NCBI RefSeq assembly: GCF_043381705.1
Contig: NC_092205.1
Coordinates: forward strand, 57,580,995 to 57,615,479
DNA from: Parasteatoda tepidariorum
Taxonomy: Eukaryota
Direction: 5' to 3'
Length of the DNA stretch: 34,485 nucleotides
The notes under the pieces were generated by a model that worked only from the letters and a program-made list of their open reading frames with translations, ran no database searches and had not been told where the DNA came from. A program made the position numbers and the translations under genes. This document shows, piece by piece, positions 9,921 through 31,946 of this stretch (position 1 is the stretch's first letter; each line of letters begins with the position of its first letter).

Positions 9921-10078
9921 ATGCCGAGTGATAAAAGTGGTGTCCCTGCAAGTCAGGGCAATGATAAGAGCATTTATCGCATACCTCCGTACATGTATAT
10001 GCATGTATTGGATCAGACTGCAAATGTCACTAGAGTTGAAGCAGGTCCAAAGACATATGTGCGGCAAGAGAACGAACG
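9921..10078 (+). CDS. MVP: Major vault protein, coding exon 1 ([53 protein letters not shown]). The exon ends in phase 2 with a CG|gtaaag donor.
   Basis: Aligns to the human MVP N-terminus ([37 protein letters not shown]). The ATG at 9921 has an A at -3 and sits just after a possible acceptor, tttccatag at 9915. An in-frame upstream ATG at 9897 would add MLSISIGI and is considered less likely. Confidence 0.85.
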
Positions 10079-11061
10079 GTAAAGAAAATTATTTCTTCTG
10101 TTTCAACATTATTATTGGTATTTTAAATCTTTTTGCTGTTTAGATTTAGTTGCTTTTAAAGACATTAAAAGCACTAAGTGCTCTTTTTCTTAAATCTTAA
10201 ATAAAATATCAGCTCTTTCTCCTTCATCTATTCGTACAAAAGTTTTTAAATAGATTTGGATAATTGCTTAACATTAGTTATAAAATCATAGCATATGAAG
10301 TAATCAAAACATCTTTATACTGAGTCATTAAAAGGAAACTGGCAGTGTTCAGAAATTCATACGTGTGAATCTTTTGAAAGTATCTAATAAAACCTTAAGT
10401 GCATGTTGCATCGATCACTATAGAAAAAGTTTAAAGCTTCATTGATGATCTGGTGCCGTGCTGTTAAAATTACATGCATATGTTCAGTACACAAAGAAAC
10501 CCACCCGATATAGCTTTTGATCTAGTGAGTGGATCTTCATATACTTTCAAATACACCTTTTTACAACAAAAAAAAAGTCTATTTGATTTAATAATAATCA
10601 TTTTAAAGAATGTAAATTGTGTGGTAATTGTGTGTGAATGTAAATTTGTGGCAAAATCCAAAATTTGAACGACATCGATTGAGTAGCTCCTGAGAAATAT
10701 AATTTTAAATATACAATTTTTTTAAATTAGGTTTCGCAGGAACCAACTGATTTTGTTCAAATTTTTAATTTTGTCATATGAAATTACATTTTTTTATTAA
10801 TATTAAATGAAATAGTAATAAAAAATAAAACAATTGGGTACAAATGTTTGTATGATTCTCAGATTTTTTTTATAGATCTTGGATATTTTTACATTTCTGA
10901 TTTCAAATCAGCAATCAGTTTCTCCGACAAAGCTGCAGTTTGTTTAAACGATATTTTTAATCTATTTTTTGTCGAAATGTACCAGTTAAAAAACATAATA
11001 TGTAGTGACGGCCGCATAAATGTCGCAACAAACTCTTAGGGGAGTTAAAACACAATATCAC

Positions 11062-11243
11062 AATTAAAACTGCGTAAGAATTCATGCCGAGAAATGTCAT
11101 CATACTCTGCTAGACACAGCTCATAATAAGGGCGCTTCCCTATTATGAAATGTTTCTTGTGCTTCTGAACATGTCATAATAGGAAAGCTCTCTTAACTGC
11201 ATACGACATTTCAGAGTTAGGGCTCATATGCAGTTTTAATCCT
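11062..11243. mobile_element. About 180-bp foldback or MITE-like element in MVP intron 1. It has imperfect TIRs (ATTAAAACTGCGTAAG.../...CATATGCAGTTTTAAT) and a central near-palindrome TCATAATAAGGGCGCTTCCCTATTATGA.
   Basis: 11 of 11 bp of gcagttttaat are reverse complement of attaaaactgc. Additional inner inverted matches are gaaatgtc/gacatttc and cagagt/actctg. Confidence 0.4.
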
Positions 11244-12163
11244 AGTGATGTTCCCTAATTTTCCTAAAAATTTGTTTCAACATTTATGCGACCCTCTGTT
11301 ATATGTAATGCTTGTAATTTGTACATTTCAACGAAAATTTGACTAAAAATGTTATTTAACAAAATTGCAGCTTTAGGAGCAAATCTAATTTCAGGTATGA
11401 AATCCCTACACTCGAATTAGGTAAGATCAAGTATTTGTATAAATGCAACAACAAAAATTTTTCTCAAGTTTAATTATTTAAAATTGATTTTTGCATTAAA
11501 TTATCTTTAAATAAACAAAATTTACAAATATGTGTGAAAAATTTTTGATTTCCAAAAAAGTTGATATGGTGAAATATGCATTAAGTAAAATTAATGCTAA
11601 GGGGTCCAAGTTTTCGATCTCTCTCCTGACTAAGTTATTGGGACCATAATTTCCAGATTGCGGCTACCTTCCATATTTTAAGAGTCGAAAATCCGAATCT
11701 GTTTGCAAAAGTTAACATAGTTAAGGGTAAGTTCTCGAACCACTAAGAATGAGTCCTTGTCTTTTAAAACCCAATGATTAAATCAAAAGTTATTCAGGAT
11801 GTTCATTTTCTTATTTTATGCACTGTATTTTGTGTTTTAAGGCAATTTTTTTTTCTTTTTTTTTATACTTAGGAATGATTTATTAATGATATAAAAATTT
11901 ATTATGGTTTTTAAAAGCCAAAATTACTTTTTCATCAAAAAAAAAGTTATGCACCCCCAATTTAATGTTGGAATAATAAAATAGTTTCCTTATAGAGGTT
12001 GCAGTTAAACATCTAAACTGAAATAATTTTAAATTATTATTTGCCACATTTGGATTCTTTGGCACCATTATGATTAGCCATAATCTTTCACTTAATATTA
12101 ATTGTTCGAAAATATCTTGTATATATTGTGTTTTAATATATTTTGTATTTGTTTATTTACTAG

Positions 12164-12359
12164 TGTGGTGTTGGAACCTCGAAAAATGATTATTATCCCT
12201 CCTTGCCATTACTGTATTATCTGCAATCCTGTGGTTCGAAATGCAGAAAATGCTTTGATTTATGATATTAGTGGTCAGACAAAATTGCGACATGCTGATT
12301 TAGAGGTGCGCCTTGAACAAGAGCCTTTCCCTTTGTATCCTGGTGAAGTGTTATTCCGT
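12164..12359 (+). CDS. MVP: Major vault protein exon 2 ((R)[65 protein letters not shown]).
   Basis: Acceptor tttactag|T, donor CGT|gtaagt. Aligns to human [26 protein letters not shown]...[25 protein letters not shown]. Confidence 0.85.
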
Positions 12360-12803
12360 GTAAGTAAAGTTTTTAATTCTATCAAATTATACGTTAGTTA
12401 TGATATTGGAATGGGCGTGGGAAATTTGATCAGATAAGGCCTGGAAAATCTGTACTCGAGGTTTCTGTTTCTTTAAAATCTTGTTCCAAGAAGCTTAAAC
12501 TGTAATATACTTGTTTTTGGCTAGATCTAGGAACTGTTATTTTCATTGATCGTCTAAAATTGTTCCTTAGTTAATGGTGCCAAAGTACATATATCATTAT
12601 TTATTTCTTTTGTTTATCTTCCTTTTTAATATAACTTAAAAATTCTGTTTTATTTTTTTTTCTCTTGAAGAATATAATTTAAAATGAATTAAGTTGCGAT
12701 TTATTTTTCTACACTCTGTAACTTGTAATGAATTTTTTTTTCACTTTTTGTCAGCTTTGTTCATTATTTGATTTATATTTCACTAATTTTATTTTGTTTT
12801 CAG

Positions 12804-12924
12804 GATGTTGAACCTTTGACAGTTGTTCATGCAAATAGTGCTCTGTTGTTGAAAGCCAACCGTGATTTTGAAGAAGCTGGAGTTAAGAGAGTTGCTGGAG
12901 ATGAATGGCTGTTTGAAGGCCCTG
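12804..12924 (+). CDS. MVP: Major vault protein exon 3 ([41 protein letters not shown]). Ends in phase 1.
   Basis: Acceptor ttttcag|GAT, donor CCT G|gtaagt. Aligns to human [42 protein letters not shown]. Confidence 0.85.
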
Positions 12925-13541
12925 GTAAGTTTTTAATGTTAATATATTTTATGCTGTTAATATATTTAATTATATTTAAGTTATTAAAGTTGGTTTTTTA
13001 TTAGCTGTAAAATACATATTGTTTAGCTCTTTTTTGCCTTCTTGTGAGGCTGTAATTTTTTTTTTGTTGGTGCGAGGAAGAGCAAGGTTGTAGAAGAATT
13101 ATCTCATTGAAATTTGAATAGTTTTTTTTTCTCTAGTCAGATTTGTTTTGGGGATATTTTTCCTGAGGTTTTTTTAACTGACCTTTATTTTAGATCAATG
13201 CAAATTCAAGACTAATTTTTCATATTGCATCTTTCAGGCATGCGATTCTTCCGCTAATTCGTGGAGTTCCGCAACTGCCAAGACCGTTGATTTGCTGACT
13301 TGCACAAATTAATAATTTATATTCCGCCAACTTTTTTGAAATTCCTCAAATCTAAATTCTAAATTTTTTACTTACTCAAAATCTTGTTAACAAGACATTT
13401 ATACTGCCCTTTCCAGCACCCTCTAATTTTCTTCCTAAGTTCTTATTCTTGCACTATACTGTTTTTTTTTGTTTATTATATAATTATTTATTTGTTGGAT
13501 ATGTTAGTTGTCTTCCTAATTTAGCTTTTTCCTTTTATCAG

Positions 13542-13768
13542 GTACTTTTGTTCCTCGTAAAGAAGTTGAAATTGTTAGAACTGTTTCTGCAACTGTTATA
13601 AAACCTAACCAAGCTTTGAGATTGAAAGCCAAAACTGAAACTAAAGATCGAGAAGGCAAAAGCAGAGTGGCTGGGGAAGAATGGATTGTAAAAAAAACGG
13701 GTGCATATCTTCCAGGTGCTTATGAAGAAATTGTAGATGTCGTTGATGCCTATGTTCTTACGGAAAAG
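13542..13768 (+). CDS. MVP: Major vault protein exon 4 ([76 protein letters not shown]).
   Basis: Acceptor ttatcag|GT, donor AAG|gtaggg. Aligns to human [75 protein letters not shown]. Confidence 0.85.
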
Positions 13769-14753
13769 GTAGGGTGTATGATTTATTGAAGAGATAGTGA
13801 CTTAATAAATGCTTTAAAATTCAGGTATTATTAATATTTGTTTTAAAATTTTAGTTATGTAATTTTAAAAAATCAATTAGTGGTTTGCATTATTACTGGC
13901 ACAATATTGAGATATAATTTTTGGGTAATTTAAATAATCTTATTAAACTGAATAATTTTTTGATTTTATACTAATTCTACACTGATTTTGTTTGTGTTGT
14001 AATTTTTTTAACTTATACAAGAGTAAAACCTTATAAATTAAATTGGAAAGTTTTAAAAATTAGTATGTAACAACTTTTTAAAATTATGCAAATAGGTTGT
14101 GGATGACCAAAAAAACAAATATAACTGAAAATACAAATTTTGATGTTGCTTGTTTCAATTACAGGGTTGCTTAATTAGTATAGTAAGTTTTGAATTAATT
14201 TTCCTAGGATAGTCAAGGATAAACTACTAAAACATTCTTAGATTGAAAATAGATAAAGTTGCATTGCAAAAAAACACATAAAGACAAGTTTATCTAGTGA
14301 ATGCAGTTGTTTTAAGAGGGGAAAATCTATGCGGACATTTGGTGATAATGCAGGGCAATTATAAATTATGTAGTTTTTCACATTCACAAAATTTGTTGGA
14401 TCCTATTCATGAAACAAGTGTATGTTATTTAAAAGCTAACATTTTTTCTTGATTACAATAACATGTTTCGAATTATAGTTACATGTTCCGAATTATAGTC
14501 TCATTTTCCATCACATTTTAAATTTAAATAGCATTAAACTGAATAAATAAAAAAATTATTTTAAAGTTAGATTACATTTAAAACTATATTGTTACTTCAA
14601 TTTCAGATGCAATTCATACAAAAGTTTAGTATTTTAAAAAACTGTTACACCGGTCCTAAATAAAACTTTAAAACTGTCCTTCAATTATTTTGGAGCTGTT
14701 TTAATTTAACTTGATAATCAAATATATTAAGTTTGATTTTTTTACATTAACAG

Positions 14754-14990
14754 GAAGCTGTTCACATTAGAGCCAAAAGGACGTTTGTTGATGAATTTAA
14801 TAAAACTAGAAAAAATGGTGAAGAGTGGCTCATCACCTTTGAGGATACTGAAACATTCATTCCTGGTGTGTATGAAGAAGTTGTAGGAGTAGTTCATATA
14901 ACTACACTTTCTAATCGACAGTATTGTGTAATTCTTGATCCCATTGGTGAGGATGGAAAACCCCAATTGGGAAAGAAAAAATTAGTAAAG
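14754..14990 (+). CDS. MVP: Major vault protein exon 5 ([79 protein letters not shown]).
   Basis: Acceptor acattaacag|GAA, donor AAG|gtaaga. 79 codons with no stop. Aligns to human TALHLRALQNFRD...[60 protein letters not shown]. Confidence 0.85.
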
Positions 14991-15660
14991 GTAAGATACT
15001 TGTGTGCTGCTTAGTTAGAAATGATATGCAATCCAGGTATTTATGTAATCTCATAAACCAGATGTTTTTTCCTTCCCAAATTTCCAATTTGAAAGTTTGA
15101 GTTAAAAAGTAGTCAATAAAAATATTTCATTGCATTCATTTTTTCTGTTACGTTTTAATATTAAAAAAAAACTTTTTTAAAAAAAAGGGGGGAAAAAGAA
15201 AGAAAAATGATACAAATGCTGAGAAACTTTCTGATGCTGGATTTTAATGTATTTCAATAATTAGGTGACTGCTAAAAAATTTCGATTCTTTGATGCATTT
15301 ATATTTATAAGATTTTATCAAAAATTATCCATTTTCTAAAATATTTTTTAGCAAGAAAGTTTATTGAAGCTTTATTAGAATATATTGCTTTTTAAAAAAT
15401 ATTTTTCTTCCATGTTATGAAAGCTATTACAATATTTCATCATAAACATTGATGCTGACGAATATTTTCCACTTTGAGCTGCAAATTACCTTCTCAGTTA
15501 GCATATCTTTGATAAGTCATTTAACCTGCAAGTATGATGCAAGCTCAAAAAAACTAAATGCGCTCTCGGTGGGAATGGAAGTTTTCTTTAAGGATTAAAT
15601 TTTCCTTTCTTGTTATTATATTATTATTTAAAATTTTAATTTTTATATTTGTTATTTTAG

Positions 15661-15792
15661 GGAGAAAAGTCTTTTTTTATGAAACCTGGTGAGCGATTAG
15701 AATCTGGTATTCAAGATGTTCATGTCTTGAGTGAAAATGAGGGTTTGGTATTGAAAGCAAGAGAGGCATTTTTAGATAATAGTGAAACACCG
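15661..15792 (+). CDS. MVP: Major vault protein exon 6 ([44 protein letters not shown]).
   Basis: Acceptor ttattttag|GGA, donor CCG|gtatgt. Aligns to human [44 protein letters not shown]. Confidence 0.85.
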
Positions 15793-16261
15793 GTATGTTT
15801 ATTGATGTGTAATAATAATTATCAAAACTTTGTATTATAATAATTATCAAAATTTATTGTAATAAATTTGTAAACTACTCTGTATTAAGTTTTGTTTGTA
15901 TTATCGAACTTGTTTATCTCGAATCTCATGGGAAAGGCTAAAAATTTGAGATAAAAGAGGTTTTGAGTTATACAGGTACTTTAAAAAAATTTTAATTTAA
16001 TTAAGAAATTCTATTAAAAGTGCTTTAAATGTTTTTAGTAGAAAAATATAGGTATTTTTTTCAAATTAATTATACCACATACATCACATACATACCACAT
16101 ACATAACATTTTTTAACATACATTTAACATGGGAAACAATTTATCAAAGATTTTTGATGTATAACCTTATTTGTTTTGATTATTCTTTTAAGGTTAGAAA
16201 GAGCGTAAATCCCTCACAGCCAACATTTTTCTGGGATTCAAGAATAGTTTATAAAAATTAT

Positions 16262-16760
16262 ACAGCTTTTTCTACCTCTTTTGCATTCACTTTTGGTTCA
16301 TCAATATGATCTTCAGCATCTTCCTTGTCATCTAATATTCCTTTGACATTATCTATGATTTCTGCATCTGTCAATGTTCCATATGTTACCAGGCAGTTGT
16401 CCACTTGTTAAAATCTTCAAAATTAATGTCCACATTTAATCCAGATTTTGTTACATTCCATTCTGGCAAATCCGGCACTGCATTTTCAGCCTCAACAGTT
16501 TCTTCTTTACTGACGCTTTCAACCTCTTGTTCATCATCTTCACAGCTATTCTTAAAACCAGCTTTTTAAAACCATTATGGATAGTTTTTAGAGACACATT
16601 TCTCCAGGCAAACTTTGCATACCAACTGTTTTTTATAGTTCACTTTAAAACTTCTAATTATCCTTTGATCCATTAGTTGCAATTTTGATATGAAAATGAA
16701 TTTATATTCTTAGCTTTCTTATCTATGATGAAAAGCTAGCCCTTAGTGGTCACTACTCAT
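16262..16760 (-). mobile_element. Decayed pogo/Tigger-like transposase remnant (frameshifts and stop codons) inside MVP intron 6.
   Basis: Reverse-strand translation yields pogo-family motifs in shifting frames: SKLQLMDQRIIRSFKVNYKKQ (compare LQPMDQGVI..K..YRR), AWRNVSLKTIHNGFKKLV (compare AW..V....I.NCF.KAG), and an acidic tail DLPEWNVTKSGLNVDINFEDFNKW / VTYGTLTDAEIIDNVKGILDDKEDAEDHIDE that resembles the tail of the 34100..34462 ORF. Confidence 0.55.
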
Positions 16761-17201
16761 TAACCCCTCACTTACTGCCAGAATCATTGCATTCCTTTCT
16801 AGTTACGGAAGTGCAGGGTTGTGATTGAAATTCCCAGAAACACCCCAACCTGTTCATCCCTACTTCCTGTGGGTTCATGAAATTCATCTCTGTCTACAAG
16901 TTTTACTGATAAAGAGGGTTTTGACATTTGGACTCTATTATTAGAAATTCGAGAAACGGAGGTTTTTGAAGAGAAAAAAAAAATTCGACATAAACATGGA
17001 AAATACATTGATTTTAAAGAGTTAAATATAGGGAATTTATTTATTTCTCTTTTGAGATATAGTGGTTTTAGAGATAAAGAGGTTTGAGATAAACAGGTTC
17101 AACTGTATATATTTTTTAAGCATGTAATTGTATTTATTTTTGCATGTATTTTTTTAAGCATTTAATTGTGGTTAATTTTAAACCAATATGCAACTTCATT
17201 T

Positions 17202-17203
<2 letters not shown>

Positions 17204-17252
<49 letters not shown>
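17204..17252. repeat. Mononucleotide (T)49 run, which reads as poly(A) on the minus strand.
   Basis: Direct count from the sequence. Confidence 0.95.
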
Positions 17253-17254
<2 letters not shown>

Positions 17255-17830
17255 ATCTTTTATTTATAATTTTTTTTTCTAATCTTTTTCAAAATCCACA
17301 TTTTTAATTAAGTTTTCTTATGGCTATCATTTCTATCTATTCATTTCTATCATTCTATGTATCATTTCTATATTCCATGGCTATCACGTTTCTTCTTATT
17401 TTTTTTTAATTAAGTTTATGGATAGGCATCAATTTGTCCTGATTGTGAATGTCCAAAACACTAATTACGAATTCAAAATTCATGTTTTTTTTTATTACCT
17501 CTTTTCATGTAACTTTTTCTAATGTGGTAAATTCATTTGGTTAGACCTTGAATATAAAAGCATTCTTATTCTTATAAAGGCAAAGCACTCTCTTAATTGA
17601 CCATTGTGAGCGATAGCATAAGGGCTGTTAAGACTCCACAGTTTCGTGACTGGTGGCATTATGATGGTAATGTTTTCAGCATTGCACACCGACCATCTTC
17701 ACTTTCCAGATAAGTTGGTACCCATTAATCTGAAACTGGTTGGGTTTTAAGATGCCTCTGGTTATTGAACCCCTGTTTTTCACTGTAACAGCTCTGTGTC
17801 TTAATTACTGAGCTATCATGACTCATTGTT
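17204..17830 (-). mobile_element. Possible tRNA-derived SINE-like retroposon on the minus strand. It would have a degenerate tRNA-like head near 17741..17826, an AATAAA-like motif, and the (A)49 tail.
   Basis: The reverse complement of 17741..17826 reads ...GATAGCTCAGTAATTAAGACACAGAGCTGTTACAGTGAAAAACAGGGGTTCAATAACCAG... It carries an A-box-like TAGCTCAGT...AGAGC and a B-box-like GGTTCAATAAC. On the minus strand, ataaataaaagatgc precedes the poly(A). No clear TSD was found, and the region could instead belong to the neighbouring pogo remnant. Confidence 0.3.
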
Positions 17831-18841
17831 TTTCGTGCTTTAGTAAATTTTGTGCGTTAATCTTTATGTACTTTAATGTTTTGAAGCTTATTTTAAAAAT
17901 GCGGAAAAAATTTAATTCGTATCATATTTAAGAAGTACTTCTTACAATTTTATGTGATTATGCAAAAATAGAAGCTCTTATCACAAAAAATAGTAGTAAT
18001 TGAAGGAATGAAAAAGCATTGCAAGATGTTGGGTCACAACTCTCCGTTTATTACCAGTATTTTTTACGAAATAATTAACTTATAATTCATATAATGATTC
18101 GAAATAAATAACATATAATTCATTATAACATATTTTTAGAAACTTTCATTTGCATATTTAAGAATGCTTTGAAAAATTTATTTGACAGTTGATAATGCAA
18201 ATTTTTTAAATACATGATGTAAATTGGAATGAATAATATTTTCAATATTGAATACTTGTTTTTTTAAAAATTCATTTGTGTTTTGAAATAAACTAAATTT
18301 ATGACTTTTTCTTTACCCCTTTTTTCTTAAAAAAACATGTCCTTTAAACATAAGACATGCTGTCTATTTAGGTCTCAATTTTATTTAATCATTTCATGTT
18401 TTTTCCTCTTTACTTAAATTATATATTGCTTATATTAGAATGTAAGAGGAATTAAATTGTTTTTACTATTTTTCAAACTATTGATCTTTTTAGTTACAAT
18501 AGAATGCATTTTTTCCTTCAATGAATACTTTGCCGTACTCAAAATTTAATATTTTTGCAATAAATTGGGCTATTTTCATATCAGAGTAAGTAACTATGTC
18601 AACTTTTATAATTGTTTACAATGTTCATTGAATATTAGCTTTTAAGCAATAGCCTTAATATTTTAGTTAAAGATAGATATCAGATGTTTAAAGCAGAACT
18701 GAAAGATTAGAATATTTTATTAATGCACTTAATGTGTAATATCAAAGTTTTGTCACATCCTATCGATATAAAATATTCTCAGCACTACATAAAGATTGAT
18801 TTAAGTGAACAAAATAAGTAATTAATTTATTTAAAATTTAG

Positions 18842-18991
18842 GCTATCAATCGCAAGCCTGGAGATCGATGGATGATTAATGGTCCAGCAGAATACATCCC
18901 ACCTACTGAAGTCGAAATAGTCACTAAAAGATATTCCATCGCTTTAGATGAGAATGAAGGCATTTATGTTAGAAATATAAAAACAGGACAT
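18842..18991 (+). CDS. MVP: Major vault protein exon 7 ([50 protein letters not shown]).
   Basis: Acceptor aaatttag|GCT, donor CAT|gtgagt. Aligns to human [50 protein letters not shown]. Confidence 0.85.
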
Positions 18992-19163
18992 GTGAGTAAA
19001 AAAATTTTACCAGTATTTGTTATTTCTTTGATACTAAATTTCTATTTTCCTAAAAGTGCTTTTTACATTAAATACAATTTAAAGAGAAAAAAAAATCTCT
19101 TTGAATAGTCTTTGATAAAGCTTTTCAGAGTTAACGAGCATTTTCTTTAAGTAACAGCTTACT

Positions 19164-19400
19164 AATATATATATAAAAATATATATATATTTGGACGTCA
19201 GATAAATCGCTACGTTTCTGCATTACGCTAACGATTGAAATGCTTTCCGATGCCCTAGGGCATCCTTTATATACCCTCCACTGTAATGTGCTGCCCCCTG
19301 CCTTCTGTGATTGGTTATTTCACGTTGACGCCGAAAGTAGGTGGTGGTCACATTAATGTGACTGAACTGTGTATATTACATATATATATATATAAAAAAT
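19164..19400. repeat. About 180-bp GC-richer insertion in MVP intron 7 bracketed by near-identical TA-rich blocks (TATATATATAAAAATAT at 19168..19182 and 19383..19398). The core holds two perfect 16-bp palindromes, GATGCCCTAGGGCATC at 19248..19263 and GTCACATTAATGTGAC at 19347..19362.
   Basis: Direct reading from the sequence. Both palindromes are exact reverse complements of themselves. Confidence 0.7.
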
Positions 19401-19833: not shown

Positions 19834-20096
19834 GTTCGTTTAGTATCTGGATCAACTTATATGCTTACACAAGATGAAGAACTTTGGGTAAAGGAATTGC
19901 CACCATTTGTGGAAGAGCTGATTAACCAAGGTATGGATCCTTTAAGTGATAGAGGAAGCTGGAAAATGATGAGACAAGGTGCTGTTCCTATGAAAGCAAG
20001 AAGCAAGTCTGATGAGGAAGGAGCTCGTGCTGTAACCTTAAGAGTTCCTCATAATGCTGCTGTTCAAGTCTATGATTACAAGGCTAAAAAATCTAG
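19834..20096 (+). CDS. MVP: Major vault protein exon 8 ([88 protein letters not shown]). Ends in phase 2.
   Basis: Acceptor cttttctag|GTT, donor AG|gtaatc. Aligns to human [41 protein letters not shown]...[21 protein letters not shown]. Confidence 0.85.
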
Positions 20097-20282: not shown

Positions 20283-20480
20283 AGTTGTTTTTGGACCTGA
20301 TCTTGTTATGCTGTCCCCTGATGAACAGTTTACTCAACTGAGTCTGTCTGGTGACAAGCCAAAACGTCCAAATGTGATTAAAAGTCTCTGCTTACTGCTT
20401 GGGCCTGATTTCTGTACAGACATTATAACTGTTGAAACTGCTGATCATGCACGACTGTCTCTTCAGTTGGCATATAACTG
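20283..20480 (+). CDS. MVP: Major vault protein exon 9 ((R)[66 protein letters not shown]). Ends in phase 2.
   Basis: Acceptor attacag|A, donor TG|gtattt. Aligns to human [66 protein letters not shown]. Confidence 0.85.
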
Positions 20481-20577
20481 GTATTTATTTTACGCATATA
20501 ATGTTTCTAGCTTTTATTATGTTTTATAAATCTACCTAAATGTTTTTTTTTTATTTGGAAGAAAAACTACTTATACT

Positions 20578-20868
20578 TAACTTAATTATACTAAAATTTA
20601 TTTTATCATTAAATGTTTGATTAGCCTCTCTTAACTGGAATGTCAGTAGAATCAACAGGTTTCTTTTGAATATCTCTGTATAAAGAAATGAAGTTATTTG
20701 GAAAAAAAGTACAAATTTTAATTATACTAAAAAAATTTTTTTGATCATTAAATGTTTGATTAACCTCTCTTAACTGGAATGTCAGTAGAATCAACAGGTT
20801 TCTTTTGAATATCTCTGTATAAGGAAATGAAGTTATTAGGAAAAAAAGCCTCATTTTATTGAACCTCA
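20578..20868. repeat. Tandem duplication, two copies of a ~139-bp unit, immediately downstream of MVP exon 9.
   Basis: aatgtttgatta(g/a)cctctcttaactggaatgtcagtagaatcaacaggtttcttttgaatatctctgtataa(a/g)gaaatgaagttatt... occurs at 20612 and again at 20751. Confidence 0.85.
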
Positions 20869-21069: not shown

Positions 21070-21211
21070 GTACTTTGATGTGAATGATAAAAGTGCAGAG
21101 AAAGCAGCAAAACTTTTTAGTGTTCCAGACTTTATTGGAGATCTTTGTAAAGCAATAGCGTCTAGGATCCGTGGTGCTGTAGCTGGTACTAATTTTGATG
21201 ATTTCCACAAG
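21070..21211 (+). CDS. MVP: Major vault protein exon 10 ((W)[47 protein letters not shown]).
   Basis: Acceptor ttttaag|G, donor AAG|gttatt. Aligns to human [48 protein letters not shown]. Confidence 0.85.
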
Positions 21212-22704
21212 GTTATTATAGTTTATATATTTTTTCTAGAATATTACATTCTAGAATTCCATATCTTAGAATAGTACATTTTGAATCTGGTGTCAAAGAG
21301 CAAACAAGTTGTTTACTGATTTATTTTTATGAAATTGTGTTTCTATTAACATAATTCATTAACAATTGCATATTTTATTCTGTTTTTTGTAAAAATTATA
21401 TATTTAATAATATATAGTTTAGGTGATAGGCACTGAAAATAAATAGAATTAATTTTTAAATTTTTTTTAGAGTACCACATTCCTTAAGTGACTTTTTATG
21501 ACGCAGGCTAAAATCATGCATATTACTATTTAGTCCTATATTTAAAACAAACTCCATTACTAATACAAATTGGGAATATTATTATAGTTTATTGTATTTT
21601 ATACTATTAAAAGCAAAATATCTATTCAGGTCTAATCGAACAATTTTTTTTTGTGTCAAAAACTTAATTTGGTTCTTAAGTTGGAAAATTTATTTTCATG
21701 ATTTAGAAATATAATTTTTTCTCTTGTCAAAACTTCAAAAAAAAAATTTTCTGAAGGATTTCATTAGAAGTTCAAGAATACTTCTATGTAACATAATAAA
21801 AAATCCAAAATTATCAGATTTTTTTACATATATTTTTTTAAAATTCTGATAAAAATTTATTTTTAATGTTGTGATATTCTGAATATTGAAAACTATTTTA
21901 AAAAATGTATTGAAAACAACTTTTGTTATATAGCAACTTTATAAAATTCTCGTATTATCTTTAAATTCTTAACAAATTGCATCAAAATTATGCAATTTTA
22001 AAAGAAATCTCACAAAAGTTTTTTACAACATTTTATTTAATTATTATAAATTTATCTTTCTAAAATGTGGGCATAAATTTTTCATGGTCTTTTCCATATG
22101 CATGTTCACATAGAGGAAGTAGGAAACTCTTCCAATCAAAATAATCTTTTAATTGACCTCTTTTTTTTGTTATCTTGTCAGAAAAAATTAAAAACTCCTA
22201 GCCCTACTGACTCAGACTTAAAAAAATTTATTAAAAATAAAAATTGAATGAATATTTTCTGTTAGTTGATACAAACCAATCATTTTTATTAATTGATTTA
22301 TTTAGAATTTAGTTTCAATGCAAGTTTGGCAAAAAGAATATTTTGTATCATAATTTTAATGTTTATGTACACTGTTTTACTTGCTCAGAATCAAGTTCAT
22401 CTTAGAATAAAAGAAAGCTAAGGAGAAAAAAATGTCCTAATATTAATTTTTTTAAACACGTTAATTGATGTGCTGTAAGCTATTACTTTTTACACGAATC
22501 TTGAAAATATGTGTTACAATTATGCTTCTACTTCAAATGAGCTACAGCATATTGACAGCCTCAATGAGCTTCCTCCAGCAGATCCAATCAAATGCTATGA
22601 TCTTCCAACTTTTGAAATTTAATGTATAACTATGTTTGCAGTGTTATATTTGAGTATATTGTGATTTAATCACTAATTCTCTACACTTTGAAAATATTCT
22701 TCAG

Positions 22705-22916
22705 AACTCTGCTGAAGTCATCCGCACTGCAGTATTTGGGCGTGATGAGCACATGAAAATAAGAAAAACTTTCTGTTTTCCTCAAAATAATCTGTATATT
22801 ACTAGTGTTGATATTCAAAGTGTTGAGCCAGTAGATCAAAGGACAAGAGATTCTCTACAAAAATCAGTCCAGTTGGCAATTGAAATCACCACATCAAGTC
22901 AAGAAGCTACTGCAAG
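22705..22916 (+). CDS. MVP: Major vault protein exon 11 ([71 protein letters not shown]). Ends in phase 2.
   Basis: Acceptor ttcttcag|AAC, donor AG|gtatac. Aligns to human NSARIIRMAVFGFE...[49 protein letters not shown]. It is about 13 aa shorter than human in the loop before FPQN. Confidence 0.85.
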
Positions 22917-23616
22917 GTATACATTATCTTTTTATTAATTTTCTTTCATTTGTCTGAGATTGTTATCTTGTGGTTGAAATATCTACTTTCCAGCCAGCAA
23001 TGAAATCTGTGCTGAAGCTCTTTGCTCCATTACAATGCCAATTTCAATCAATTACTAGCCACCACTATCAGAGTTTATAGGTTTTTATGACCCAATAAAT
23101 TTTATCGTCAATCAAAATTCTGATCCTTTATGCAAAATATTGCATATTAAAATTTATCAACATAAATTTAGCTCCATTTTCTTTCCAGCTTAGTAGAGGA
23201 CTAAGTTTCAACTATGTGTCTGCTGCTTATTAAGTTACTGGAGTTTACTGTTGTTGTTTCTAATGACGCTTGCCATGTTCCTAAATGGTACAAGCAAAAT
23301 TTTGTTCACTTTCCAACACAACAAGCAAACTGAAATTAAAAAAAAATAGTAAAGCAAATTCCAAGTAAAGTAAGCGGTAGAATTTTTTTTTATTTTTCTC
23401 TGATCTATATTCCAAAAGGTTAGGCTTGTCACTTTAGTTAAATTTTTTGATGGTTATGCACTCTGGTGTTATATGTCTAACAAAAATAAAATTTCAATTT
23501 TTGTATTCTACTTGAAAGACACTATGTTTAAAAATTTTTTATTGTTTAAGTAAATGTGGTTTATTTCTCCATTTTTAGAAAATAAAAAATCTCTAATTCA
23601 TTAAGCTATTTTGCAG

Positions 23617-23860
23617 GCATGAAGCTGAAAGACGAGAACAAGAAGCCAAAGGTCGCCTTGAACGTCAGAGAATATCTGATGAAGTAGAAGCTGAAAAAAC
23701 TCGAAAGAATTTGTTAGAGCTGCAAGTTGCCAGAATGGCCATTGAAAACTGTGGTCAATCTAAAGCTGAAGCTCTGAGTCGTACTGAAGCTCAACGTATT
23801 GAAGCTGAAGCTGCCATTGATCAAGCCAAGGCTAAAGCAGAAGCTAAACGCATTGAAGCT
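23617..23860 (+). CDS. MVP: Major vault protein exon 12 ((R)[81 protein letters not shown]). This is the C-terminal coiled-coil cap-helix region.
   Basis: Acceptor ttttgcag|G, donor GCT|gtatgt. Aligns to human [81 protein letters not shown]. Confidence 0.85.
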
Positions 23861-25871
23861 GTATGTATTAAAGTATTCTTTTTCTTAAATTCATTGCTTT
23901 GAAGCAGATATTCAAACTGGTTTGTCTATAAAGGCCAAATTTAAGTTTGTTAGATCAAACTGGAAAGTTCTAAATGCCAGATAAACGGCAATTAGCGGAG
24001 GGGGAAGTGAAGTTGCAAAATATTTAAAAGTTTTATCAAAATTCAATATTTTTTTTTTGGACATGGAATATTAATGCTTGCAACTTCAATTACTATAAGT
24101 AGTAATTTCCAGAGGTTTAAAATGACAGCTAAATTTAATAATTGCAAATGAAAATAATGAAGCTGTATTTTAAAAGTTAACAGGGATCGTATTTTCCCTA
24201 AAATTTTTCTAAAGGTTTTTCACAACCTCTAAAATACTAAAATTTTGCAGTTCCTAAAAAATGGAAATTATGTGAGAAGTAATGATTAAATCTCTCAAAT
24301 TAACGTTCTACTCTAATCAAATAACTAAATCTGGGTTGCACCGATCTAACAGCTAAGTGCTTCAAACACATAAGAATTTACTTGTTGAGAGAGCTATCAG
24401 CATTGTGCTTCATTTCTTAAGCTTTCATTGCTCGTAATCATTTTAAAACATTTTCATAGCGTTTTCAAGGTAAATTACTTAAAATACACCTACTTCCTGT
24501 TCAGTAAAATAAATAAGTTGATCAGCATGTTATATGCAATTCATACAGGCCAGTATTGTTGCTGCCACGAAAGGCAGATATAAGGTATAACGAAATTGAT
24601 AATGGTAAGAATTGGAAACAATTCTATTTAAATTGGTATGCTAGTTGAAATTTTTTAGTTAACTTAACAAAGAACAATAGCGAAAATATTTTCGTGAATG
24701 TTTTTTTCTACAATTATTTAAAACTCGGAATTATTTAAAATTTTACTTACTTTTTTCTGATTAGTTTTTCAAGCACTTAGAATTTTTCGACATGGAAAAA
24801 AAATTGAACAATAGTACAAAAAGTGTGCTTGCAATTTCCAGAATTGTTCGTTATTGAAATTTTTTGAAAGAGTATATTGACAGTGTTAGGTATTAATGGA
24901 AGCTATAAATATTTTATGTTAGTACCCATAAGAAACTATCTTAATGCAGGTTTATGGATATTTGATGAAACAGATTCTTTAAGATATTATCTAAAATGTG
25001 AAAAATTAATTGCATTAATATAAACCATTTTAACTTTTCAAACTGAGAATCCTGAAAGGGGTTTTTGATAAGTAAAGCTATGCTCAGTGTTAGTCACAAT
25101 GAAATGAAAATACTATTTTATGTCTCATATTGGTGAATGATACTCAAAATTATAAAGGGGTATTAAATATACCTTTCACATTAGCACTACTTTTGGCAGT
25201 GAAAGATTCTCATAATTCATACCTGGAATTTAGTAGAATAGTAAAATAAGTTATACTAAGTAATAAATTTAAAAACTAATGAATAAAAAAATGAAAAATT
25301 TTGATTTACAGATTCGTGAAAGTAGCCAAAAAACTAGACATTGGCCTAACAAAATAATGAACAGAAAGATTGAGAAAAGCTGCAGTGTCTCAAAATATTG
25401 TAGAAATGATGGTCTCATATACTTTTAATATCTAAAAGAACTGATTAGCTACAAAATTCGGAAAAATGTCGAGACATGGATTCCAGAGTCTCGAACTTAA
25501 TGTCAATTCCAAAGATATTAAGTACTAATTAAGTACTAATATTATCACTACCAAAGTAGAAATCTGAGATGGTAGAACTACAAAATATAGAATCAGAAAT
25601 GACTGTCTTCAAAACTGTGAAAGAAATATTGAAAAAGTGACTGAAAATTAAATATTGCTTCTAATTTTTAACTATAATTGAAATTTAATAGTAAACAATA
25701 TTTTTTGTTAAAATAATTAGGTAAAAATAAAGTTTCGAAGTAGTCATCAAATTAATGTTTTTTTCTTAAAATTTCTCTAACATCTAATAGTCTACCACGA
25801 AGTTATAAGGCTATGTAGACCATTTGTTTTATGTATTTAAAAAAATTACTATTGCCATTACCATTTGTTTT

Positions 25872-26427
25872 AAAAAAATTACTCGTAATTTGTGAATATG
25901 AAATAAACGATAAGTCATTCTTTCAACCAGGGTCCTGCTTTTATGAATTTGTGCAAATAGGGTCCGGTTATAGCAACAAAAAAAATTCAAGGAGTTTTTA
26001 AATTGTAAAGAGATAGGAGATTATGCTCAACACTGTAAAATTATAATTAAAAAAATTAAATTTTAAAAAATAAACAACAATTGCTGCTTCTAAATTAGAG
26101 ATGCAACATACAAATATTTGGTATTTAGCCTATACTGCTGAACGCAGAATATTAATTTCGGACGAATAATGGAAGAATCGTCTGCCGAAGACAAAACTTA
26201 ATTCGTTTACATCCATCTTTCTTGTTTTCTGCCCTGGAAAGGGTTTATTCGATTAACAAAATAATAATGAAGATAAACAAATTTGTGAAGGGTCCGATTA
26301 AAAGAAAAATTATTTTGTGAAGGGTCCGTTTTTAAGTTAAAATATTTTGTGAAGGGTCCGTTTTTATGAAAAGATATTTTGTGAAGGGTCCGTTAACGGA
26401 CCCAAATTTCTTCTAAACAGACCCCTG
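25872..26427 (+). mobile_element. Related copy A of the same CAGGGG-TIR element family. It is 5'-truncated with no 5' TIR. Before its 3' terminus it carries an expanded 3' subterminal array of four ~32-bp TTTTGTGAAGGGTCCG(A/T)TTTT repeats, followed by the palindrome GGGTCCGTTAACGGACCC.
   Basis: Core homology to copy B (attctttcaaccagggtcc...gggtttattcgattaaca) and an identical 3' terminus ...ggacccaaatttcttctaaacagacccctg. Confidence 0.55.
26281..26400 (+). repeat. Tandem subterminal repeat array, 4 copies of a ~32-bp unit (a/t)TTTGTGAAGGGTCCG(a/t)TT(T)..., inside copy A.
   Basis: Unit starts at about 26281, 26313, 26345 and 26377. Confidence 0.7.
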
Positions 26428-26741
26428 CCTAATAACTTAAATTTTAATAAAATTTTTACTTCATAGCTACTTTTACAAATTATGTAGAATTTAGATAAAT
26501 ATATGTCTTTATATTATAAGGTAGTTTAATGTAAGTAAATAGGTACTATCAGTGTATGTTGATTATTCCACTCATGAAATGCCAAAATTAAAGTCACGAC
26601 CTGCTTATATGAAATCCACTATCGTTAACCCCGATTTTCATTTCATGGACCCCCAATTTTTTTTTCGCTTGACATGGACCCCTTGCAGGTTGTCATCGAC
26701 CCCTGAGGATCGATATAGACCACTTTGGGAATCAATATAAT

Positions 26742-27177
26742 CAGGGGTCTGTCCAGACATTTTGTGAAAGGTCCGTTTTTCGTGAAATTGTGAAAAAATT
26801 ACTCACATTCTTTCAACCAGGGTCCGCTTTTATGAATTTGTGCAAATGGGGTCCGATTGCAAAAAAAATTTTTTCAAGGAGTTTTTAAATTGTTAAGACA
26901 TGCAAGATTATGCTCAACACTGTAAAATTATAATTTAAAAAATTAAATTTTAAAAAATAAACAGCAATTGCAGCTACTAAATTAACGATGCGACGTATAA
27001 ATATTTGGTATTTAGCCTATACTGCTGAATGCAGAATATTCATTTCGGACGAATAAAGGTCTGCCGAAGACAAAATTTAGTTCGTTTGCATCGGTCTTTC
27101 TTTCGCCCCTCCCTTCTAGGAAGGGTTTATTCGATTAACAAATTAACGGACCCAAATTTCTTCTAAACAGACCCCTG
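26742..27177 (+). mobile_element. Nonautonomous TIR element (copy B, 436 bp) with terminal inverted repeats CAGGGGTCTGT...ACAGACCCCTG and one subterminal TTTTGTGAAAGGTCCGTTTTT repeat. CAGGG termini are hAT-like. Flanks are degenerate, aatataat on the 5' side and caattaat on the 3' side.
   Basis: The 5' end caggggtctgtccagac and the 3' end ctaaacagacccctg are reverse complements. The internal core is about 85% identical to 25872..26427. Confidence 0.6.
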
Positions 27178-27384
27178 CAATTAATATTTTTTTTTTTTTT
27201 AAAAAATTTATGATTAGAGATTGTCTTTTAGCACGCCTTTAATTATTTCTTTTTAACTACTTTAAAAACTGTTGAGGATCAAATTCAGTTATTACATAAT
27301 ATTACACAATTAGATAAATTTTTAAGGTGTTATGTAGGAGCTTCTTCAAAATTCAAACTGTCCTTTCCTTTTTTTCAGGTAGAA

Positions 27385-27860
27385 CTTTAGATATCAAACA
27401 GTCTCTCTTATTTTAATACAATCAACAGAATAGATAGAAAGAAATGCACCTTCCAAAGGAGATGATCAAATTAGAATTATACAATAATGCATGGGTACAA
27501 AATAGTGATTAAAAATTCATATAAAAACAGTTAAATTAAAGTTTCACACTATTGCTAAATATCAAACATTCTCTTCCACTGTTCCACTGTTAAAGTTCAG
27601 AAATACCAACAAAATTTTAAACACTGTTGTACTACCAACAGAACAGATAGGAAAAATATGTACAACCCCCCAAGGAGATTATAAAATTAAAATTATACAA
27701 TAAAGGGTGGACAGCACAGAATAGTGATTAAAAAAATTATATTAAAGCAGTGAAAGCTACATATTATTGCTACATATCAAACATTCTCTTATTTTAATGA
27801 TCCGGTGTTGAAGTTACAGAAATACTATCAATAAAATTTTGCTACACCATTCTACAATCA
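27385..27860. repeat. Tandem repeat, about 2.5 copies of a 170-215-bp unit (...atatcaaacattctctt...caacagaatagatag...ggagat.atcaaattagaattatacaataa...atagtgattaaaaa...).
   Basis: The anchor atcaaaca(t/g)tctct recurs at about 27392, 27561 and 27776 with similar flanking sequence. Confidence 0.6.
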
Positions 27861-27874
27861 ACGGAAGGATCCTC

Positions 27875-27940
27875 TTTTATGAAAAGATATTTTGTGAAGG
27901 GTCCGTTAACGGACCCAAATTTCTTATAAACAGACCCCTG
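27875..27940 (+). mobile_element. Solo 3'-terminal fragment of the CAGGGG-TIR family (subterminal repeat, then GGGTCCGTTAACGGACCC, then ...ACAGACCCCTG).
   Basis: tttatgaaaagatattttgtgaagggtccgttaacggacccaaatttcttataaacagacccctg is near-identical to 26362..26427. Confidence 0.55.
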
Positions 27941-28561
27941 TATAGATACGAATAATCTTCCCATTTTGCCATTAAATATGGCTTACTCAATATGTTAGAC
28001 AAATTTATTAATATGCTATCTAGAGTATGTGTTTTCAATTTTACAAGTCAATATTAATATAATGAACTGCAGTGTAAGGTATTTTTATCTTAACTAAATC
28101 GCTCCCAAATTTTTTTTGGAGAATATCCTTCAAATGCATCCTAATATATTAAAAAAAAAAGTAAATACTGCCAATAAAAAGTGCTATAATTTTAATGACT
28201 AGAAACCAAGGTTTTTAATTTAATCTCAGATATAATTAATATAATTTTACATGGGAAAATGCAAAATTTGAATGAAATCTGTTGAATAGTTCCTGAGAAA
28301 TGGAATTTTAAATATCTAACTTTTATTTTTTGAAGTCTGTGTTCTTTACACCCTAGGCTGCTGTAGTACTGGGTTGTCACTAAATAGGGAGAATAAGGAA
28401 AACCTGGAAAATAGATGGAATATAAAAATTATCTAAATTAACAGCATATTAAATTTTTCCTTATAAACTAGGAAGTGCAGGGAATTTTATTCTTTAACTT
28501 ATAGTGTTTGTATTCTTTAACTTATAGTGTTTAGTGAAGTGTTCAATAAACTTGCTTGTAA

Positions 28562-29337
28562 CAGGGCTCGAAAAACCACCCGTCCTCGGCGGTCAAAAAT
28601 TCCCCACGGACAAAAAATTTCTCTAATCCAGCGTCCGCGCGGACGGCCGTTTTCCCGTAAATGTTCGTGATACATTTTAAATTTTTTTTATCTTACAAGA
28701 GTCTACCGCCTCACTTCTAAAATGACCCTCTGATCTCGAAATACAGCAACACACTGTGCATGGTGGAATTGATGTTTTCTCTGTCAGGGAGTACTGCAGC
28801 GGTTGAAAGGGGCTTTTCAGCAATGAACTTACAAAAAAACACATTACTTACTGGTCTTAAACAAGAAGCGTTAAACGCATTTATGAACATCTACCTAAAT
28901 GGAAAACCTCTTTCAGATTTCTGTGCAGAAACCTCTGTAAAATATTGGCTTGATTGTGGAACTGGCAAACGTCATATTTGATTCATTTAAAAAACGCAGT
29001 ACCATCGGATAAATTGACATAATTGACAGATAACTTAACCTTTGTTATTTAAATTATTTCATCAAAGAAATAAATTATTTCATAATAGAAATACTAGGTT
29101 TTACTAATAGTACCCTAGTATTTCTTTTATTACTGTATAATGTAATCCTAGTATTTGTAATCGTAATAACTACTAACTAATTCATTGTGCAATTTATATA
29201 AATGTTTGTAATAAATAAGAGAAAATTATATTTTTATTTATTTAGAAGCGACGGGTTAATTTCAAAGGAGGATGGGTAAATTGTTGGACAAGCGGTCCTC
29301 GGGGACGGGTAAAATTTCTGAGTTTTTTCGAGCCCTG
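28562..29337 (+). mobile_element. Nonautonomous, internally deleted hAT-superfamily DNA transposon of 776 bp. It has a perfect 8-bp target-site duplication GCTTGTAA (28554..28561 and 29338..29345) and roughly 16-bp terminal inverted repeats CAGGGCTCGAAAAAAC.
   Basis: The 5' end reads cttgcttgtaa|CAGGGCTCGAAAAACCACCCGTCCTCGGCGGTC and the 3' end reads GCGGTCCTCGGGGACGGGT...TTTTTTCGAGCCCTG|gcttgtaata. The ends are reverse complements of each other. The CAGGG terminus and 8-bp TSD are hAT hallmarks. An internal ORF encodes a hATC dimerisation-domain remnant. Confidence 0.8.
28760..28981 (+). pseudogene. hAT transposase C-terminal dimerisation-domain (hATC) remnant, 73 codons. It is all that is left of the transposase after an internal deletion.
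   Basis: The ORF track protein ...LSGSTAAVERGFSAMNLQKNTLLTGLKQEALNAFMNI... carries the conserved hATC signature S-x-x-x-x-ER-x-FS followed by a hydrophobic R/K..L....L..L pattern. The BED and RNase-H-like domains are absent. Confidence 0.7.
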
Positions 29338-29377
29338 GCTTGTAATATACTAACATATTCATTCTTTAATTACAAAG

Positions 29378-29566
29378 GAAACAGAATTAGACCGTCTACA
29401 GAAAGCTAGAGAGGCTGAATTAGGCTATGTGAAACGTCAAAATGAATTGGAAGTTGAGAAAACAAAGCTACTTTCTGAAATTGAAATTAATAAATTTGAA
29501 AAGGTGATTACAAGTCTAGGAAGTGATACCATTCAAGCAGTTGCGTCAGCTGGTCAAGAATTTCAG
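29378..29566 (+). CDS. MVP: Major vault protein exon 13 (ETELDRLQKAREAELGYVKRQNELEVEKTKLLSEIEINKFEKVITSLGSDTIQAVASAGQEFQ).
   Basis: Acceptor attacaaag|GAA, donor CAG|gtttgt. Aligns gap-free to human [63 protein letters not shown]. Intron 12 (23861..29377) is 5.5 kb and full of transposable elements. Confidence 0.85.
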
Positions 29567-31802
29567 GTTTGTTTTTTTAATAAATTTAATCAGTTTCATT
29601 ACTTTTGTGTGATTGGTTTATATATTTCTGTGTGTAAAACGAATGTTTTATGTTATAAAATAAAATTTTAACTATATTTTAAAGTATTTCTTTATTTTCA
29701 ATACATTTGAACTTTTCCATAACATGAAATCTTTGGTAAATACTCATTAAAATAAAGCTGTAGAAAAGTTAGTCTTTTCTAAGCTTTCTGAGCATTTTTC
29801 TAATCAACCTGAGGAGCCCAAACTATCTGTACACTTTTATGTCTTCAATTATATTTATTTCAAACCAATCATTTCTCTCATTGATTCATTCATTATACTT
29901 TATTTTGGGGTTGAATAATTTCATTTCAATCGTGATTCAAATTGCAATTTAAATCACTTGATTTTTAAAATAAAATAAAAAAATCACTCAAAATGACTAT
30001 CATGTTTTTAAAAACTTTTTTTTTTAAAAATGTAATTAATAAATAAATATGTTCTTTGAGTTTGAGATTTCATGCAAAGAAATAATAAAAGAGAGATGGA
30101 CTCCAAAAGGGACACATTTTTTTAAAAATGGATTGAAAAATTAAAAAGTAGAAAAAGTAAAAGAAAAAAAGACTGAGAAAACAGGAAGCTTTTTAATTAT
30201 AATTTTATCTTAGGTATATGTAAAATAATTTGCAGATTATAAATATAATTTAATAATACCCATTTAATTTTATGTTAATTGAGAAATAAGTGCTTATACA
30301 ACTTACCAGTATGTAATCAGTGTATATCAATAATGAAAAAAAGACTATTCTTACACAGACTAAATTAAAATATTTTTTAGTTATATTTTTTTATTTAAAT
30401 TTGTTCCCTGTCCTAATAATGAGTTTGAACAAAAACTACAATTCTTTTATTTATTCAGTGATTAAATAACAATGTTCCAAATGATTAAATAACAATTTTA
30501 GTCCAAAATATAATTTGTTTTTATCTATGATATTGTTTTTTAAATAATTAATACATTTTGGCAGATGCTTTGGTAGGTTATTGTAAAAAATGAAGTCTGA
30601 TTTAAACAATAAGAATCCTGTTTTTTTACAATTTTGTTTTCTTTCTGCCGTGTATTGTCTGTTATGAAAGAATCTAGCCGATTGATTCTGGTTTTATTTT
30701 CTTGCTCTTCAGTTCCATCAGTCACAAATGCATCATTTAACTGATTTGTTACTTGGGCCAAAACGTTTTTCTATCAAGCTCAGCATCTGGAAAACCAGTT
30801 TTCAACCTAAGAAAATTTGCAATTAATACCTCTAACTCAGTTTTGGGTTTTAAGGCTGCTAACTACCATGTTTTTTACAAAATATTTTATAGAGTGGTAG
30901 ACCGTTAAAAATTAAAGCTTTCGTAATTTTGCCAACATTTTAAAACCCTTACCATAAGACAGCTAGAGCAAAGTGGTGTTTCATATGAACTTTTGACTCA
31001 TTTACATGGTGATGTGAAAAATGATTTAAACTCATACTAACAAAACACAGAATTGTCCATAAAGACGTAAACTTAGCCGTTACTAGACTAAATTTTCCCA
31101 AAAAGCGTTTGAAAGTTGACAGTCCTGTTTAACTATAATATCTTTTTGTATCAAGGTTATTGTTATTTTATGTATTTAACATGGTACGTAGCGTTTTTAA
31201 AAAGTGTTTATTTTCGTTTTTAAAAGCCCTTAAAGGGGCTTTTTTCATTGTTTTTAAAAAGTGCTTAATTTTCCCTTTTCAAAAATGAGATTTAATTGTT
31301 TGCCATGTCGATTTTTGCCACATGCTATGCAAATGCGTGCTTTTCACATTGTTCTATCCAACATTTTCACTATTCATTCAACCACAATCCATTTTGGCAT
31401 ACCGTCGGTCCATAGTGTATGAAAGTGCCAATCATTTTACGTGTTTGATGAAATACTTGCAAGTCGGCATGTGCGTCTGCTGGTCTGGGTTCGGTGAGAT
31501 TATTGCACTCTCATGTGCAACTCTACTGAATTTCGAAAGATATTTTCAATTTCAAGCTTCATTTTCCACCATCTGATATCGAATCGCAATATCTCTTGAT
31601 TATTTTATAATAGCTAATATAATAAAAAAAAAGTTCTTTGTCAGAAACTAGTTATTTTATCATGATCATGTAAAGTCTTTAAAATTATTTTGCATTTTTT
31701 AATGTATATAATGCTTAGAAATATTTTTTGAGTACTTAAAAAGTGCTAATTTCTTGTCGAAAGATTTGGCTATGCACCCTGTTTAAACATTTATCAATTT
31801 CA

Positions 31803-31946
31803 GGTTAAACTTCTCCAAGGTCTTGGAATCCAATCAGCTCTTATAACTGATGGAAACACTCCTATCAACTTGTTCGGTACTGCGCAAGGTTTCCTTGGCT
31901 CAGCACTAACTGGTGTTCCTGAAAAAAGACGCCGTATGGGAAGTGA
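31803..31946 (+). CDS. MVP: Major vault protein terminal coding exon ([47 protein letters not shown]). Coordinates include the TGA stop codon.
   Basis: Acceptor atcaatttcag|GTT. Aligns to human [43 protein letters not shown]. Summed coding length is 2613 nt, giving 870 aa. Confidence 0.85.

Follow-up and report, generated by a model that had tools for sequence, protein, structure and literature searches.

Does the genome of the spider Parasteatoda tepidariorum carry a complete and functional gene for the major vault protein (MVP) and, if so, where does the encoded protein begin and what does the gene tell us about the distribution of vaults among arthropods? These questions are raised by a stretch of 34,485 nucleotides (assembly GCF_043381705.1, contig NC_092205.1, positions 57,580,995 to 57,615,479 of the forward strand; hereinafter, the window), for which a sequence-only reading had proposed a complete MVP gene in 14 coding exons. 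We consider it nearly certain that the window is the P. tepidariorum MVP locus, that is, a functional, single-locus, intact gene in which 14 coding exons are joined, in each transcript, to one of several alternative 5′ exons.

Reconstruction of the MVP gene

Stop-free segments of the plus strand between 9.9 and 32 kb carry clear MVP-like peptides. The coding blocks were located by combining such segments with a tblastn guide alignment to human MVP, which yielded 14 collinear blocks; over residues 4-864, the guide sequence coincides exactly with PDB 11dr_A as printed. For each gap between blocks, all GT and AG dinucleotides were listed and the pair that preserved both the frame and the alignment was taken, with a single sensible choice in 12 of the 13 gaps. 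The resulting model extends from the ATG at 9921 to the stop codon TAA at 31966-31968, a span of 22,048 bp, and its coding sequence of 2634 nt with the stop codon (2631 nt without it) specifies 877 amino acids in a continuous frame in which the sole stop is terminal. All 13 introns are of the GT-AG type, with acceptors that are rich in polypyrimidines.

These results bear out most of the sequence-only reading. The in-frame, canonically spliced structure is as it had described, and the protein alignment check that it recommended, performed with tblastn and splice refinement, gave 14 exons without in-frame stops and with MVP as the best match. Two of its figures have to be corrected, namely the end of the gene at 31946, to which 22 nt must be added to reach the last base of the stop codon, and the summed coding sequence of 2613 nt. 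All the motifs that it quoted are present with the exception of the first, given as IRIPPY, which reads differently in the rebuilt protein. The description of the gene as complete holds for the coding part, but the 5′ extent was underestimated, given that alternative first exons reach up to position 1847; with these mini-exons included, the gene covers at least 1847-31968 of the window. The AT-richness that had been ascribed to the genome fits the contrast in GC content between the MVP exons (0.36-0.45) and introns (0.23-0.29), in a window with a GC content of approximately 21-40% per kilobase and approximately 28% overall. The first AATAAA signals past the stop codon, at 32370 and 32378, are candidates for the MVP polyadenylation site.

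Table 1. Coding exons and coding parts of the alternative 5′ exons of the MVP gene (positions in the window)
Feature	Position	Strand	Remarks
X2 alternative 5′ exon, coding part	1847-1871	+	MSYAAVTK + G; donor gtacat
X3 alternative 5′ exon, coding part	3289-3295	+	MK + A of Arg codon; donor gtaagt; sole pattern match upstream of 9916
X1 alternative 5′ mini-exon, coding part	8803-8830	+	MFCFEILSS + G; phase-1 donor gtatta
Coding exon 1	9921-10078	+	transcribed exon starts at 9916; donor gtaaag; ends in phase 2
Coding exon 2	12164-12359	+	196 nt
Coding exon 3	12804-12924	+	121 nt
Coding exon 4	13542-13768	+	227 nt
Coding exon 5	14754-14990	+	237 nt
Coding exon 6	15661-15792	+	132 nt
Coding exon 7	18842-18991	+	150 nt
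Coding exon 8	19834-20096	+	263 nt; variable loop, residues ~449-471
Coding exon 9	20283-20480	+	198 nt; motifs LCLLLGPDF, ETADHARL
Coding exon 10	21070-21211	+	142 nt; motif KLFSVPDF; shoulder domain
Coding exon 11	22705-22916	+	212 nt; short loop preceding FPQNN
Coding exon 12	23617-23860	+	244 nt; cap-helix
Coding exon 13	29378-29566	+	189 nt; cap-helix
Coding exon 14, coding part	31804-31968	+	165 nt; stop codon TAA 31966-31968; 3′ untranslated region runs on downstream

Identity and domain architecture of the protein

The translation of the independently rebuilt model is identical in 877 of 877 positions to RefSeq XP_015912407.1, the P. tepidariorum major vault protein isoform X4. In a database of 5.8 billion proteins, 2704 sequences matched at E<=1e-50, the top match being P. 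tepidariorum MVP isoform X2 (100% identity), which is encoded on a 105-Mb scaffold. Both in this database and in the PDB, the E-value of the MVP match is reported as 0, far beyond chance. A look-up of the contigs on record as encoding the exact sequences (P0123, P0121, and P0001), which might have been transcripts or larger genomic pieces, returned none.

All five MVP families of Pfam exceed their gathering scores. The Vault family matches four stretches (E 5.5e-69), Vault_2 matches two, and Vault_3 and Vault_4 match one each, which gives eight repeat matches in Pfam, and the alignment to the solved structure takes in the ninth repeat. The shoulder domain (PF11978, MVP_shoulder) spans residues 535-652 (E 1.1e-53) and matches positions 1-118 of the 118 positions of the profile. 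From about residue 630, at the end of the shoulder loop, to residue 869, a region that includes the cap-helix, the protein aligns with human MVP without gaps. In the cap-ring, spider residues 823-869 pair with human residues 818-864, including the LITDG-TPINLF segment, of which I837, T838, D839, G840, P843, N845, L846, and F847 are invariant in an alignment of 15 metazoan MVPs (chelicerate, myriapod, mollusc, and cnidarian, including the Parasteatoda sequence).

Alternative 5′ exons and the start codon

The four isoforms of the P. tepidariorum MVP cluster in RefSeq (X1, 888 amino acids; X2, 887; X3, 881; X4, 877) differ at the N-terminus: X1, X2, and X3 consist of the X4 protein preceded by MFCFEILSSGI-, MSYAAVTKGI-, and MKRI-, respectively. 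The extra residues end in G-I or R-I, which indicates that an upstream exon ending in phase 1 is joined to GA-ATA-ATG at 9916. Indeed, each of the upstream peptides maps uniquely in the window, with a GT directly after it (Table 1), and the start-proximal sequence (ttatctatttccatag/GAATAATGCC) contains a good acceptor, the AG at 9914-9915, five bases ahead of the ATG at 9921.

It is therefore conceivable that the main MVP product starts in one of the upstream mini-exons, as a protein of 881-888 amino acids, in which case the 14-exon model would be devoid of the true first coding exon. This possibility draws on the three RefSeq isoforms, whose N-terminal peptides fit the mini-exons exactly, each with a phase-1 GT donor, and on the published Augustus model aug3.g17061.t1 (PMC11219742), in which SIYRIPPY is numbered from residue 27, matching isoform X2. 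However, the extensions of X1-X3, which comprise only 4-11 residues, show no likeness to each other and are not matched by anything in other spider MVPs: in the MVP of Argiope, the methionine equivalent to that at 9921 is internal (MAPHKESDVSSKGEKS), and the N-terminus of the Uloborus protein likewise contains nothing that corresponds to them. Furthermore, annotation pipelines routinely stretch an open reading frame (ORF) to any in-frame ATG in an exon of the 5′ untranslated region; isoform X4, which starts at 9921, is represented by three RefSeq accessions (XP_015912407.1, XP_071033727.1, and XP_071033728.1) and hence by several transcripts; and the ATG at 9921 has a purine (A) at position -3. 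We accordingly regard an upstream start of the main product as unlikely and take 9921 to be the conserved start because the X1-X3 extensions are mutually unrelated and absent from other spider MVPs, which share a lead-in from this methionine. The ATGs in the mini-exons are probably ATGs of the 5′ untranslated region that were collected by annotation pipelines.

The second candidate start codon that the sequence-only reading had considered, the ATG at 9897, can be discarded in favor of the ATG at 9921 at which that reading had placed the start of the gene. It lies upstream of the 9915/9916 acceptor used in X1-X3 and is intronic in these transcripts because the exon begins at 9916; furthermore, the peptide MLSISIGI that would be read from it occurs in no annotated or orthologous protein.

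Two points weigh against our interpretation of the locus. First, the RefSeq and Augustus models are predictions, even if normally guided by RNA-seq, and the assignment of the dominant 5′ exon and start rests on them. Second, an AlphaFold2 model built from the 15-sequence alignment is of low confidence (mean predicted local distance difference test score, pLDDT, 49; predicted template modeling score 0.28), although its outline is one of a beta-rich N-terminal two-thirds followed by a near-continuous helix at residues 653-817. A fold like that of solved MVP is predicted from the full-length sequence alignment to the PDB structure, at 62% identity.

Orthologues of the spider MVP and the integrity of the gene

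Among the database matches listed, which include many spiders, Limulus, Tachypleus, Centruroides, Nymphon, and myriapods, identity to the P. tepidariorum protein decreases from other spiders (75-79%) through Limulus (72%) and the scorpion (70%) to myriapods, molluscs, and cnidarians (65-68%), a ranking that agrees with the species tree as judged from the order of the matches rather than from a formal tree. The exon junctions were compared with 10 chelicerate orthologues, seven of them at 73-78% identity (spiders or the closest matches) and three from non-spider chelicerates, and no insertion or deletion was found within three residues of any exon junction in these aligned sequences. Junction-adjacent indels were detected only at junction 6, in mollusc, centipede, and sea-anemone sequences, where the protein has a variable loop.

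Contamination merits attention for any arthropod MVP, given that full-length MVPs in beetle assemblies have been dismissed as trypanosomatid-like contamination (PMC11219742), and a contaminant or symbiont could likewise be suspected as the source of the present gene. However, the nearest relatives of the protein are other spiders, followed by the horseshoe crab and the scorpion; the gene contains 13 long AT-rich introns whose composition is the same as that of the rest of the window; it resides on a 105-Mb scaffold; and another P. tepidariorum gene, as well as repeats that are present in other spider genomes, are interspersed with it. The phylogenetic ranking, together with the composition of the introns and flanks, refutes this explanation, to which we assign a negligible probability. 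Equally remote is the notion of a decaying, non-functional copy with recognizable exons, which could be entertained in view of the repeated losses of MVP among ecdysozoans (within the chelicerates, in Acari), but which we reject on the unbroken frame of 877 codons, the canonical splice sites throughout, the full length of all Pfam domains, and the approximately 300 columns that are invariant across the 15 metazoan MVPs, Parasteatoda included; moreover, the single Parasteatoda cluster among the matches listed argues that this is not a redundant copy.

Distribution of MVP among arthropods

The sequence-only reading had suggested that an intact MVP might be taxonomically informative. The presence of MVP in this lineage is confirmed, but the taxonomic question has already been settled. 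Daly et al. (2013; PMC3762200) did not find MVP in arthropods and suggested a loss in this group, a view that was overturned by a 2024 study of the salmon louse, in which MVP was reported in 41 ecdysozoan taxa including Chelicerata (PMC11219742). According to the latter work, there is no loss of MVP in arachnids outside Acari, and the insect loss dates to the ancestor of Pterygota and not to that of all insects. The supplementary alignment of that study includes the entry "Parasteatoda_tepidariorum/27-865 ... aug3.g17061.t1", which is exactly the sequence encoded here. Full-text searching returned no paper that mentions both "major vault protein" and "Parasteatoda", the species being present only in the supplementary alignment. 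The P. tepidariorum MVP gene is therefore already known: it is annotated, named, and used in the literature.

The locus again confirms that MVP was retained in chelicerates, in contrast to its loss in winged insects, in mites and ticks, and in most nematodes, a conclusion published in 2024 with the use of this very gene. P. tepidariorum appears to be a reasonable, tractable model for arthropod vaults, and the corrected gene model with its 5′ alternatives can be used for probe or CRISPR design. Beyond quality control, the significance of the locus is small, the lesson being that a 14-exon gene can be reconstructed by eye almost perfectly.

A nested antisense PIH1-domain gene

The minus strand carries, at 5138-7378, a single-exon ORF of 747 amino acids (5135-7378 with the stop codon), which is situated between the MVP mini-exons and within the first intron of transcripts X2 and X3. 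The ORF starts approximately 1.4 kb from the MVP X1 exon, in a head-to-head arrangement. The encoded protein is identical to a RefSeq entry named "PAX-interacting protein 1", but the only domain detected in it is PIH1 (E 5e-12), and its nearest relatives in an exhaustive HMMER search of 1.8 billion representatives are PIH1 and PIH1+CS proteins, mostly of about 300 amino acids, with at most 32% identity. The C-terminal part, approximately 400 residues, is of low complexity and consists of repeats rich in proline, glutamine, histidine, and methionine. The RefSeq name is probably wrong, and the domain content points to a fast-evolving member of the PIH1 family, of the R2TP or dynein-assembly type.

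This arrangement, taken together with the alternative 5′ exons, invites a more speculative idea, to which we give little credence. If the mini-exons were really translated, MVP chains would carry differing N-terminal tags on top of an 11-residue spider-specific extension, and promoter choice could tune the pairing of half-vaults or the docking of cargo in a tissue-specific manner, given that the N-termini of MVP line the inner waist of the vault, where the two halves meet. In addition, transcriptional interference between the two genes would be possible because one MVP promoter sits beyond the antisense PIH1-domain gene located in the first intron. The start at 9921, with the mini-exons contributing to the 5′ untranslated region, remains the interpretation that we favor.

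Repeats and other features of the window

Several repeats of ordinary kinds are found in the MVP introns. The largest, intron 12 (5.5 kb), contains two copies of an element of approximately 350 bp, an unclassified interspersed repeat, at 25916-26264 and 26806-27146, in direct orientation and with 85% identity, and adjoining it, at 26282-26394, a 32-bp tandem repeat of 3.5 copies. The same intron includes an open frame of 86 amino acids on the plus strand (28721-28978) with a sub-threshold match to the hAT C-terminal dimerization domain (E 0.018; 15.2 bits, the cut-off being 21.4), which is probably what is left of a hAT element; apart from this match, comparison of the intronic and flanking ORF fragments with Pfam at E<=1 yielded nothing. 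Intron 9 includes a tandem duplication of a 139-bp unit at 20551-20848 (1.9 copies, 93% matches), and intron 6 contains a perfect run of 49 T residues (17204-17252), which may represent either the poly(A) tail of a retroposed element on the minus strand or an assembly-prone homopolymer.

At the right-hand end of the window, an acidic open frame of 127 amino acids on the minus strand (34103-34483) runs off the edge. It contains no Pfam domain. Six short unnamed protein fragments, of which one is from the spider Oedothorax gibbosus and the others are from ENA assemblies, match it at 50-93% identity, and it resembles a dispersed repeat or the remnant of a transposon. For this ORF and another at 16261-16565, also on the minus strand, a Tigger/pogo-like resemblance was considered, which is unsupported by any search and is not claimed here.

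Predicted function

The shell of the vault is made of MVP, which consists of nine beta-sheet repeat domains, a shoulder, a cap-helix of 155 residues, and a cap-ring; in insect cells, MVP alone forms the vault particle (PMC7916137). Vault assembly is the expected function of the spider protein because every MVP segment is present in it and collinear. By homology, 78 copies would assemble into a hollow shell made of two 39-mer halves, in which the nine N-terminal beta-sheet repeat domains are predicted to form the wall of the barrel and the N-termini to come together at the waist. The shoulder would close the barrel, the cap-helices of approximately 155 residues would bundle into the cap, and the C-terminal cap-ring would close the pole. 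Homology is likewise the basis on which particle assembly and any cellular role would be ascribed to the spider MVP. With respect to other vault components, neither TEP1, nor PARP4, nor vault RNA is encoded within the window; scans of the whole window with Rfam (at the gathering threshold) and for transfer RNAs, covering vault RNA, intronic small nucleolar RNAs, and the like, found nothing.

Comparison with known MVP genes and proteins

The closest comparison is with the gene as annotated. RefSeq isoform X4, under all three accessions, represents the same gene and an identical protein, to which RefSeq adds the mini-exon isoforms X1-X3.

Compared to human and rat MVP (PDB 11dr, 4v60, 4hl8, 7pkz, and others), the spider protein is collinear over its full length, through the repeats, shoulder, cap-helix, and cap-ring. 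The alignment with the solved human structure (11dr_A) is a single stretch that joins spider residues 15-869 to human residues 4-864, with 525 identities among 849 aligned pairs (61.8%). It is not gap-free, contrary to what had been stated for vertebrate MVP in the sequence-only reading: the spider row has gaps of 1, 1, and 10 columns (12 in all), the last before FPQNN, and the human row has six gap columns (at about residues 449-471). Accordingly, the shoulder loop preceding FPQNN is 10 residues shorter than in the human protein, a difference that the same reading had recognized, and the loop at about 449-471 is six residues longer. At the N-terminus, the spider protein is longer by 11 residues rather than 12 (spider residue 15 pairs with human residue 4), and its C-terminal tail beyond residue 869 is shorter and unrelated. 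The human MVP gene has 15 exons (PMC7916137), and a spider transcript also has 15, 14 of them coding plus one 5′ exon, a likeness in exon count; the spider gene extends over at least 30 kb, in a window of approximately 28% GC.

Among chelicerates, the differences are those of ordinary orthologous divergence. The MVPs of Argiope, Caerostris, Trichonephila, Uloborus, Oedothorax, Limulus, Centruroides, and Nymphon show 65-79% identity to the P. tepidariorum protein, and the aligned spider, scorpion, and horseshoe-crab sequences (Nymphon left out) differ from it in length only by 1-6 residues at about 455-461 and by one residue at 625. The proteins of Argiope and Uloborus share with it an N-terminal lead-in of approximately 17 residues, counted from the methionine at 9921, before the motif (I/F)(Y/F)RI(P/A)PY. 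Finally, Limulus has at least two copies of MVP, in contrast to the one cluster seen for Parasteatoda among the matches listed.

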